Shown: in pieces, positions 12,714-13,166 of the stretch | Layout of the letters: every line of letters starts with the position of its first letter | Position numbering within the stretch: position 1 is the first letter of the stretch | From: a virus | Virus record (IMG/VR): IMGVR_UViG_3300042517_000935 | DNA length: 16,302 nucleotides | Direction: 5' to 3' (one strand) | Notes under the pieces: generated by a model | What the model saw: the letters and a program-made list of their open reading frames with translations, nothing else | Told to the model about the DNA's origin: nothing | The model's database searches: none | Translations under genes and position numbers: made by a program

Positions 12714-13166
12714 TCATGGTGCGAATTTTGTCTCCGCGCTCATCCTGCCTCCGGGGTGATCATCTCCCGCACCCACTCCGGCAGCAGGGCGCCGATCGGT
12801 CGGCGATTGGCCAGGCTGCTGGCCTGCTTGAACAGCGTTTCGATGGCCATCACTCAACAACATACTGATCTCACTGCTCCAATTTAGATCATGACGACTT
12901 ACTGGTCCCAGAGGTTTCACAGTCATGAGCCACTCAGTACCACCACCTGCCAGGTCCACATCATCGGGATCAGTCACCATGAACACACTGTTTTTGTGTG
13001 CTGGCTTGTTCATGGGTCTATAATGTTCCAACACAGAATAGAAATCTGTGTTTTCCCAATCCTTTTCATACTCTTGATTGCGAGGGGTTAGTATGGTTCC
13101 CACTGGCAGATAGTCCATGCTGCCGTGATAATAGGTGACAGAAGATTGTAATTCCTGGATTCTCAT
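12714..13166 (-). CDS. Hypothetical protein. The N-terminal ~100 aa carry an H-G-S motif that may indicate an H-Y-E ADP-ribosyltransferase-like fold. The 3' end reads through a high-GC insert in a different frame and may be artefactual.
   Basis: VTYYHGSMDYLPVGTILTP...DFYSV...GGGTEWLMTVKPLGP loosely resembles the KptA/Tpt1 C-lobe (LYHGT..FLPSI..GL.P...VWLTD.VPP) and the PARP HGS signature, but the N-terminal R-H lobe is absent. The C-terminal ~45 aa are low-complexity, translated from the GC-rich segment 12718-12850. Confidence 0.4.
   Translation of the reverse strand: MRIQELQSSVTYYHGSMDYLPVGTILTPRNQEYEKDWENTDFYSVLEHYRPMNKPAHKNSVFMVTDPDDVDLAGGGTEWLMTVKPLGPVSRHDLNWSSEISMLLSDGHRNAVQAGQQPGQSPTDRRPAAGVGAGDDHPGGRMSAETKFAP
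12718..12850 (-). other. High-GC island (~65-70% GC vs ~42% background) containing a 36-aa minus-strand ORF with GC3-rich codon usage.
   Basis: Minus strand 12850 to 12740 reads ATG GCC ATC GAA ACG CTG TTC AAG CAG GCC AGC AGC CTG GCC AAT CGC CGA CCG ATC GGC GCC CTG CTG CCG GAG TGG GTG CGG GAG ATG ATC ACC CCG GAG GCA GGA TGA, i.e. MAIETLFKQASSLANRRPIGALLPEWVREMITPEAG. This is codon usage of a high-GC organism. The ORF is embedded in the 3' end of gene 12714..13166 in another frame. Confidence 0.4.

Follow-up and report, generated by a model that had tools for sequence, protein, structure and literature searches.

Illegitimate (non-homologous) recombination junctions with filler DNA are a general route to phage mosaicism and to the uptake of host fragments, and the hyperplastic or cassette regions of T4-like and huge phages hold tRNAs, translation factors and homing endonucleases. 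Nothing on phages came up in a search of the literature with the exact filler-DNA term. Huge phages carry tRNAs and release factors (PMC7162821).

The locus described here lies in a 16,302-nucleotide stretch of viral DNA (IMG/VR record IMGVR_UViG_3300042517_000935; hereafter the window). Like filler-DNA deletion junctions, it joins two unrelated breakpoints with short unrelated DNA between them and truncated genes on both flanks, and it differs from a fully traced filler junction in that no template for the filler was found in the collections searched. It also resembles the cassette regions of large phages, having tRNA, homing-endonuclease and release-factor-like genes, small ORFs and a gene content that varies between close relatives, but unlike those regions it shows gene loss and not gain of function. 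With phage morons and other host-derived auxiliary genes it has in common a compositionally deviant segment within a phage genome; unlike morons, the filler is no complete gene, but comprises 30 internal codons with no promoter or terminator of their own, in an ORF whose ends are accidental. As in MITE- or REP-like elements, the filler is short and GC-rich and contains two perfect 6-bp hairpins, but unlike MITE, REP or IS elements it is single-copy, lacks terminal inverted repeats and a target-site duplication, and has ordinary folding energy, and it replaces DNA where a MITE or REP would be inserted into it. The absence of such repeats, of a duplication and of a second copy speaks against the small mobile insertion that the first-pass annotation had offered as one origin. 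A structured RNA was considered and rejected, folding being no better than that of shuffled sequences (z = -0.43 and -0.74), and an Rfam scan at E <= 1 gave no match in the island.

The window probably represents part of a huge phage from fresh or estuarine water, because its vault-like protein matches huge phages and because contigs carrying the gene family truncated at this locus reach 462 kb. Among deposited phages, the vault-like protein is matched only by two huge phages of 735 kb and 462 kb (37% identity; PMC7162821). This protein (856 aa, 6804-9374, minus strand) has Major Vault Protein shoulder and repeat domains (PF11978, E 3.7e-19; PF17795). The phage tRNAs read CAA and TTG, as well as AGA in a strain variant, codons that a GC-rich host would be expected to use seldom, and this set would fit a host whose GC content exceeds that of the phage.

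Comparison with relatives establishes the anatomy of the junction. Homology to L006, L007 and L008 stops at 12843 and resumes near 12750: window 13433-12847 aligns to L006 1192-1775 and window 12750-11172 to L006 4683-6263, and between the two breakpoints L006 has 2.9 kb that is absent from the window, comprising GGACT, aldolase_II, three small ORFs and a PCRF/RF-1 gene, followed by the homospermidine synthase gene. By residue-level alignment, the left breakpoint follows the minus-strand sequence ...GATGGCCAT, with 12843 as the last base common with the relatives. The right breakpoint was placed from one relative only, of 80% identity, and the right edge of the filler is uncertain by about 6 nt (12745-12751). 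Because both flanks align to relatives up to 12843 and to about 12750, only some 92 bp are new, namely the island core or novel filler at 12751-12842 (minus strand), which has no counterpart in the relatives. Any microhomology at the joined ends amounts to no more than a few bases. An intragenomic template was rejected, since a blastn-short search of the filler against the window and all of the relatives' loci, including the deleted segment, returned only matches of <=13 nt with E >= 2.

The DNA that was lost contains the last ~40 codons of a gene with a predicted ADP-ribosyltransferase (ART) fold, several small cassette genes and codons 1-134 of a release-factor-like gene. L006 has an intact copy of the ART-fold gene with 84% amino-acid identity to the window copy, and L007-L011 keep the full-length gene, with 94-96% nucleotide identity over the retained part and loss of homology exactly at 12843. 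Gene content at the locus differs among L006, L007 and the window. The island had been described as embedded in the 3' end of a phage gene; that gene is not intact, for the island replaces its conserved C-terminus at a deletion junction of about 2.9 kb, and the island is absent from the nearest relatives, L006-L011. To judge from homologous sequences, the truncation of the flanking genes is the derived state, as more than 100 homologues keep the C-terminus and the release-factor stub corresponds to the last 50 of 184 residues.

The retained 5' part of the ART-fold gene, which is ~147 aa long when complete, occupies 12843-13181 on the minus strand and is cut after ...LLSDGH; it has 108 codons from the homologue-supported ATG at 13166, or 113 from a GTG at 13181. 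The 155-aa ORF that now contains it has 182 homologues, nearly all of 146-150 aa and unannotated, and only the first ~70% of the ORF aligns to them. Their full-length C-terminus has the consensus ...DG[HY]xxDSxEVxxAAxNYWxGVPHxNExVWEYLTPxAxIxxVEEY, and more than 100 family members carry this conserved C-terminus, which is missing from the window copy. Numbered according to the full-length relative P0002, the residues H14-G15-S16 and W134-E135 are invariant in the family, and the missing C-terminus holds seven invariant residues, including W134 and E135. The truncation deletes a helix (113-123) and strands 134-138 and 141-148, two of them core beta-strands.

The ~147-aa family has no Pfam or PDB sequence match. 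Its AlphaFold (AF2) model (pLDDT 89.6, pTM 0.81) gave as best Foldseek match BC2332 (2aua_B; E 1e-5, TM 0.66), with the rifampin ADP-ribosyltransferase Arr also matched (2hw2 and 9iaf; E 2e-3, probability 1.0, TM 0.41) and, after Arr, pertussis toxin, cholera toxin and ParT. Because of these matches to BC2332, Arr and the toxins, the family is assigned a predicted ADP-ribosyltransferase fold. Such folds have an H-G-S/T motif on the first strand and an acidic residue on a C-terminal strand, and here H14-G15-S16 and W134-E135 would be candidates for catalytic residues, with E135 as the acidic one. On the branch leading to the window, amino-acid changes are not in excess in the retained N-terminal part, which means that the event happened very recently or that selection still acts on the truncated protein. 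The ART-fold family (P0002-P0120) is large and unannotated, and most of its members lie on large, phage-like contigs (up to 462 kb); in one member, P0041, some 115 aa form an additional domain at the N-terminus.

On the other side of the junction lies the 3' remnant of a release-factor-like (PCRF/RF-1) gene, identified by its match to L006 (12589-12750, minus strand). It consists of the last 50 codons (12592-12741, encoding ERGDKIRTMRFQDDQV...NNHCR), the stop codon (12589-12591) and a few bases at the junction whose assignment is uncertain, and 42 of the 50 residues (84%, E 1e-32) are identical to residues 135-184 of the 184-aa RF-1-domain protein of L006. The release-factor-like gene is itself split in L006 (4141-4845) into two pieces, one of 35 aa (PCRF) and one of 184 aa (PCRF/RF-1), and in L007 (2704-3090) it is interrupted after 'EWFSGTGK' by unrelated sequence; the split in relatives may reflect programmed frameshifting or decay of the gene. 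As a result of the deletion, an intact homospermidine synthase gene (11172-12575, minus strand; Pfam Sacchrp_dh_NADP and Sacchrp_dh_C) with 41% identity to hss of the Ralstonia jumbo phage RSL1 is now directly downstream of the scar, and it is probably co-transcribed with the truncated ART-fold gene. A search of IMG/VR for close relatives by way of hss returned nothing.

GC content along the window is not uniform. In a sliding-window analysis the island was the highest peak at every size tried (60, 100 and 133 nt), with the next-best peak trailing it modestly (0.667 vs 0.75 at 60 nt and 0.64 vs 0.70 at 100 nt), and the best-scoring GC segment was 12734-12827, at 72.3% GC. The description of a high-GC island of about 130 bp is accurate for 12718-12850 (64.7% GC), but the background of ~42% given with it is not, the mean GC of the whole window being 46.0%. 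The filler at 12751-12842 has 68.5% GC over its 92 bp, distributed as 0.63/0.50/0.90 across the three codon positions of the minus frame ETLFKQASSLANRRPIGALLPEWVREMITP (ETLFKQ...), and its three-base periodicity exceeds that of shuffled sequences (permutation p = 0.002), a pattern usual in the coding sequences of GC-rich genomes. The GC3-rich signature that was first noticed is real, GC3 being 84% in the minus-strand ORF at 12740-12853 and 90% in its 30 truly novel codons, but GC3 alone is not diagnostic, since the vault-like gene of the phage locally reaches 0.93 (in one 30-codon stretch, with 7-8 CpG per 92 bp).

CpG content is a sharper anomaly of the filler than GC3. The observed/expected ratio is 0.93 in the filler vs 0.40 in the remainder of the window, and the 92-bp filler contains 10 CpG, compared with 1.95 on average (sd 1.5) and no more than 8 per 92 bp elsewhere. 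The filler uses CCG for all three of its prolines, as well as ACG, CGG and CGA; the phage genes avoid such codons, the shares of the respective amino acid being given as 2-5% for CCG, ACG, GCG, TCG and CGG and as 4-9% for CCG, ACG, CGG and CGA. By GC, codon-position periodicity, CpG and NCG codons the filler looks foreign, and because no donor was found this foreignness is one of composition, over 92 bp. The window as a whole is strongly depleted in CpG (0.40 observed/expected) and depleted in TpA (0.63). Such CpG depletion is unusual for a phage of 46% GC and may be a sign that a CG-targeting restriction system or a methylation system is being avoided.

Two ORFs cross the island. The 36-codon minus-strand ORF reported from the first reading is present in the sequence (12740-12853, minus strand), with 37 codons from a GTG or 36 from the ATG at 12850, and encodes (V)MAIETLFKQASSLANRRPIGALLPEWVREMITPEAG; the filler supplies its middle 30 codons only. 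Its boundaries are accidental, because the ATG lies inside a phage-derived palindrome, ATGGCCAT, that is common to the relatives, and the stop codon TGA (12740-12742) lies at the edge of the release-factor remnant. This origin of both ends makes a captured micro-gene unlikely. The second is the 155-aa fusion ORF (12714-13181, minus strand), which, as the first-pass annotation observed, reads through the island in another frame to give a low-complexity, Gly/Pro/Gln-rich tail: it joins the truncated ART-fold gene to 42 out-of-frame residues read from the filler and the release-factor remnant. Its TGA overlaps an ATG (ATGA, 12714-12717, minus strand) that opens a 42-codon release-factor stub ORF. 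That ATG arose by an Ile-to-Met change relative to L006, probably by chance.

The junction is widespread. The tail-bearing protein (P0001) was found on at least 12 contigs and the micro-ORF product (P0121) on at least 38, from JGI, NCBI and Logan and from many samples, and contigs with the junction always have the same context and are 99.9-100% identical across it; the scar is fixed in the population. A chimeric assembly, for which read coverage had earlier been proposed as a check, is excluded by the identical junction in independent JGI, NCBI and Logan assemblies.

An HNH homing-endonuclease gene (248 aa, 13437-14183, plus strand; phrog_655, E 1.4e-35) sits about 600 bp from the junction, and homing-endonuclease genes flank the locus and are polymorphic between strains. 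The island had been placed immediately next to a tRNA-like gene, but this gene (13207-13293, minus strand) is about 360 bp away. It is non-canonical, scoring 26.3 bits against the Rfam tRNA model (gathering score 29), having almost no D-arm and a 28-nt extra arm, and not being called by ARAGORN. A sigma-70-like promoter match of 11/12 lies just upstream of it (13337-13310), and the element is conserved, occurring also in L006 and, in a version whose extra arm is shorter, in L007. Strain polymorphism is seen where window 13229-14433 is compared with L001 4570-5668 (also L014 and L021): in the other strains ~1.1 kb with a canonical tRNA-Arg(TCT) and an ORF of 280 aa takes the place of the 5' part of the tRNA-like gene and the HNH gene. 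The position of the breakpoint within the tRNA-like gene suggests that cassette exchange is tRNA-targeted or driven by homing endonucleases.

Searches for a donor of the filler were negative throughout. Distant-mode blastn of the island against phages and plasmids gave chance matches only (30-60 nt, E >= 0.008), and tblastn of the island peptide against the same sets gave nothing. In a phmmer search of 1.84 billion protein representatives the peptide matched only itself (P0121) and, spuriously, P0122, a tandem-repeat protein that was rejected as a homologue because its 44 bits are the sum of seven weak repeat matches at 28% identity. A word-indexed search of 5.8 billion clusters matched the minus-frame peptide only to itself and returned nothing for a 72-aa plus-frame ORF. 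Exact island 23-mers had 0 matches in GTDB genomes, and an exact 25-mer and two codon-degenerate island patterns had 0 in IMG/VR. An exact 22-mer occurs in two unrelated JGI metagenome contigs of 62% GC, and was dismissed as chance, the matches ending at 22-27 nt. For a 30-aa fragment, these searches are sensitive only to donors of roughly 80% identity or more.

For neither of the two high-GC3 frames was a parent protein found, despite the presence of the phage in dozens of the metagenomes searched, and the negatives therefore also argue against a parent gene in its own assembled genome. An origin of the filler in an unassembled part of the same, probably very large, phage genome is conceivable, because the vault-like gene locally approaches a similar GC3 and CpG content. 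A host release-factor gene was rejected as donor, as the filler, read in the stub frame, has a stop codon and the wrong periodicity. The earlier proposal of a host gene piece agrees with the GC-rich, coding-like composition, but no collection searched contained a donor; the host is the most plausible source.

The island is most readily explained, and we hold this with good though not complete confidence, as a recent, non-functional deletion-plus-filler scar that left two pseudogenes, and not as a captured working gene. A double-strand break or replication accident would have occurred in the variable cassette region of a recent ancestor of the phage, possibly, and this is speculation, caused by the nearby homing endonuclease. 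The break would have been resolved by illegitimate joining with the loss of about 2-3 kb, from codon ~109 of the ART-fold gene to codon 134 of the release-factor-like gene, and the ends joined through ~92 bp from another genome, rich in GC and CpG. The filler would most likely be an internal in-frame fragment of a protein-coding gene of the host or of a co-resident replicon. The outcome would be a truncated ART-fold pseudogene with a low-complexity tail, a 50-codon release-factor stub and an accidental 36-codon ORF. The anatomy of the junction, the foreign composition and the fixation of the scar are shown directly; a single step, a break by a homing endonuclease and a host donor are what we infer. 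That the event was recent follows from the unameliorated CpG of the filler and from the near absence of branch-specific changes in the retained part of the gene. The original suggestion of a recently captured foreign fragment thus agrees with the foreign composition and with the absence of the island from L006-L011, but what was captured is only 92 bp at a deletion scar. The finding is real, but the scar is an ordinary one.

A history in two steps, in which a complete foreign GC-rich gene or cassette was recombined into the locus and later eroded to the 92-bp remnant, is unlikely, although it would account for the clean reading frame and codon periodicity across all 30 filler codons and for the position in a cassette hot spot whose contents differ among L006, L007 and the window. 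No strain or relative with a longer GC-rich insert was seen among the at least 38 contigs or in the 5.8-billion-cluster search, and such a history needs at least two events where one suffices.

More dramatic versions of the event, in which a huge phage patched a double-strand break, perhaps one cut by a homing endonuclease, with a random piece of host chromosome, or in which the 36-codon ORF or the new tail is a newborn micro-protein, are given a low probability. Functional novelty as such, whether through expression of the 36-aa micro-protein or through a new function conferred on the truncated ART-fold protein by the 42-aa tail, is very unlikely. The fixation of the variant across many samples would fit it, but hitch-hiking in a clonal population with 99.9-100% identity explains this equally well; the scarcity of changes in the N-terminal 108 codons on the window's branch and the ATGA stop/start overlap, which ties the fusion ORF to the stub ORF, are also in its favour, but the truncated protein lacks two core beta-strands as well as the invariant W134-E135. 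As for the micro-protein, both ORF boundaries are accidental, no convincing ribosome-binding site lies upstream of the ATG at 12850, and the peptide has no homologue among the 1.84 billion representatives.

It is highly improbable that the island is the C-terminus of a GC-rich ART-fold homologue, acquired through recombination with a related phage and shifted by one base. The idea came from a resemblance by eye between the island peptide and the family's own C-terminus, which at the natural offset share E.V.E.[LI]TP[QE]A and one Asn (shuffle p = 0.0045 for that single offset), but it was rejected by profile tests: the profile score is -59.8 bits and p rises to 0.15 with 14 offsets allowed, the score from the family HMM, -2.5 bits, does not exceed that of other frames, the best blastp-short match against 114 family members has E = 2.8, and the invariant aromatics Y122, W123, W134 and Y136 are all missing. 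An assembly chimera or sequencing artefact, to which only the abrupt change in composition points, has a negligible chance of being correct given the identical junction in independent assemblies from many samples.

The value of recognising the deletion-plus-filler scar lies mainly in annotation. The '155-aa protein' (P0001) and the '36-aa hypothetical protein' (P0121) in public catalogues are products of a deletion scar and should not count as genuine gene families. Should a donor come to light, the foreign 92 bp could be used as a marker linking phage and host, and if the break was indeed patched with host DNA, they would be a 'fingerprint' able to identify the uncultured host once its genome becomes available. 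For the phage itself, the scar indicates that a natural population recurring in many samples can do without the release-factor-like and ART-fold genes.
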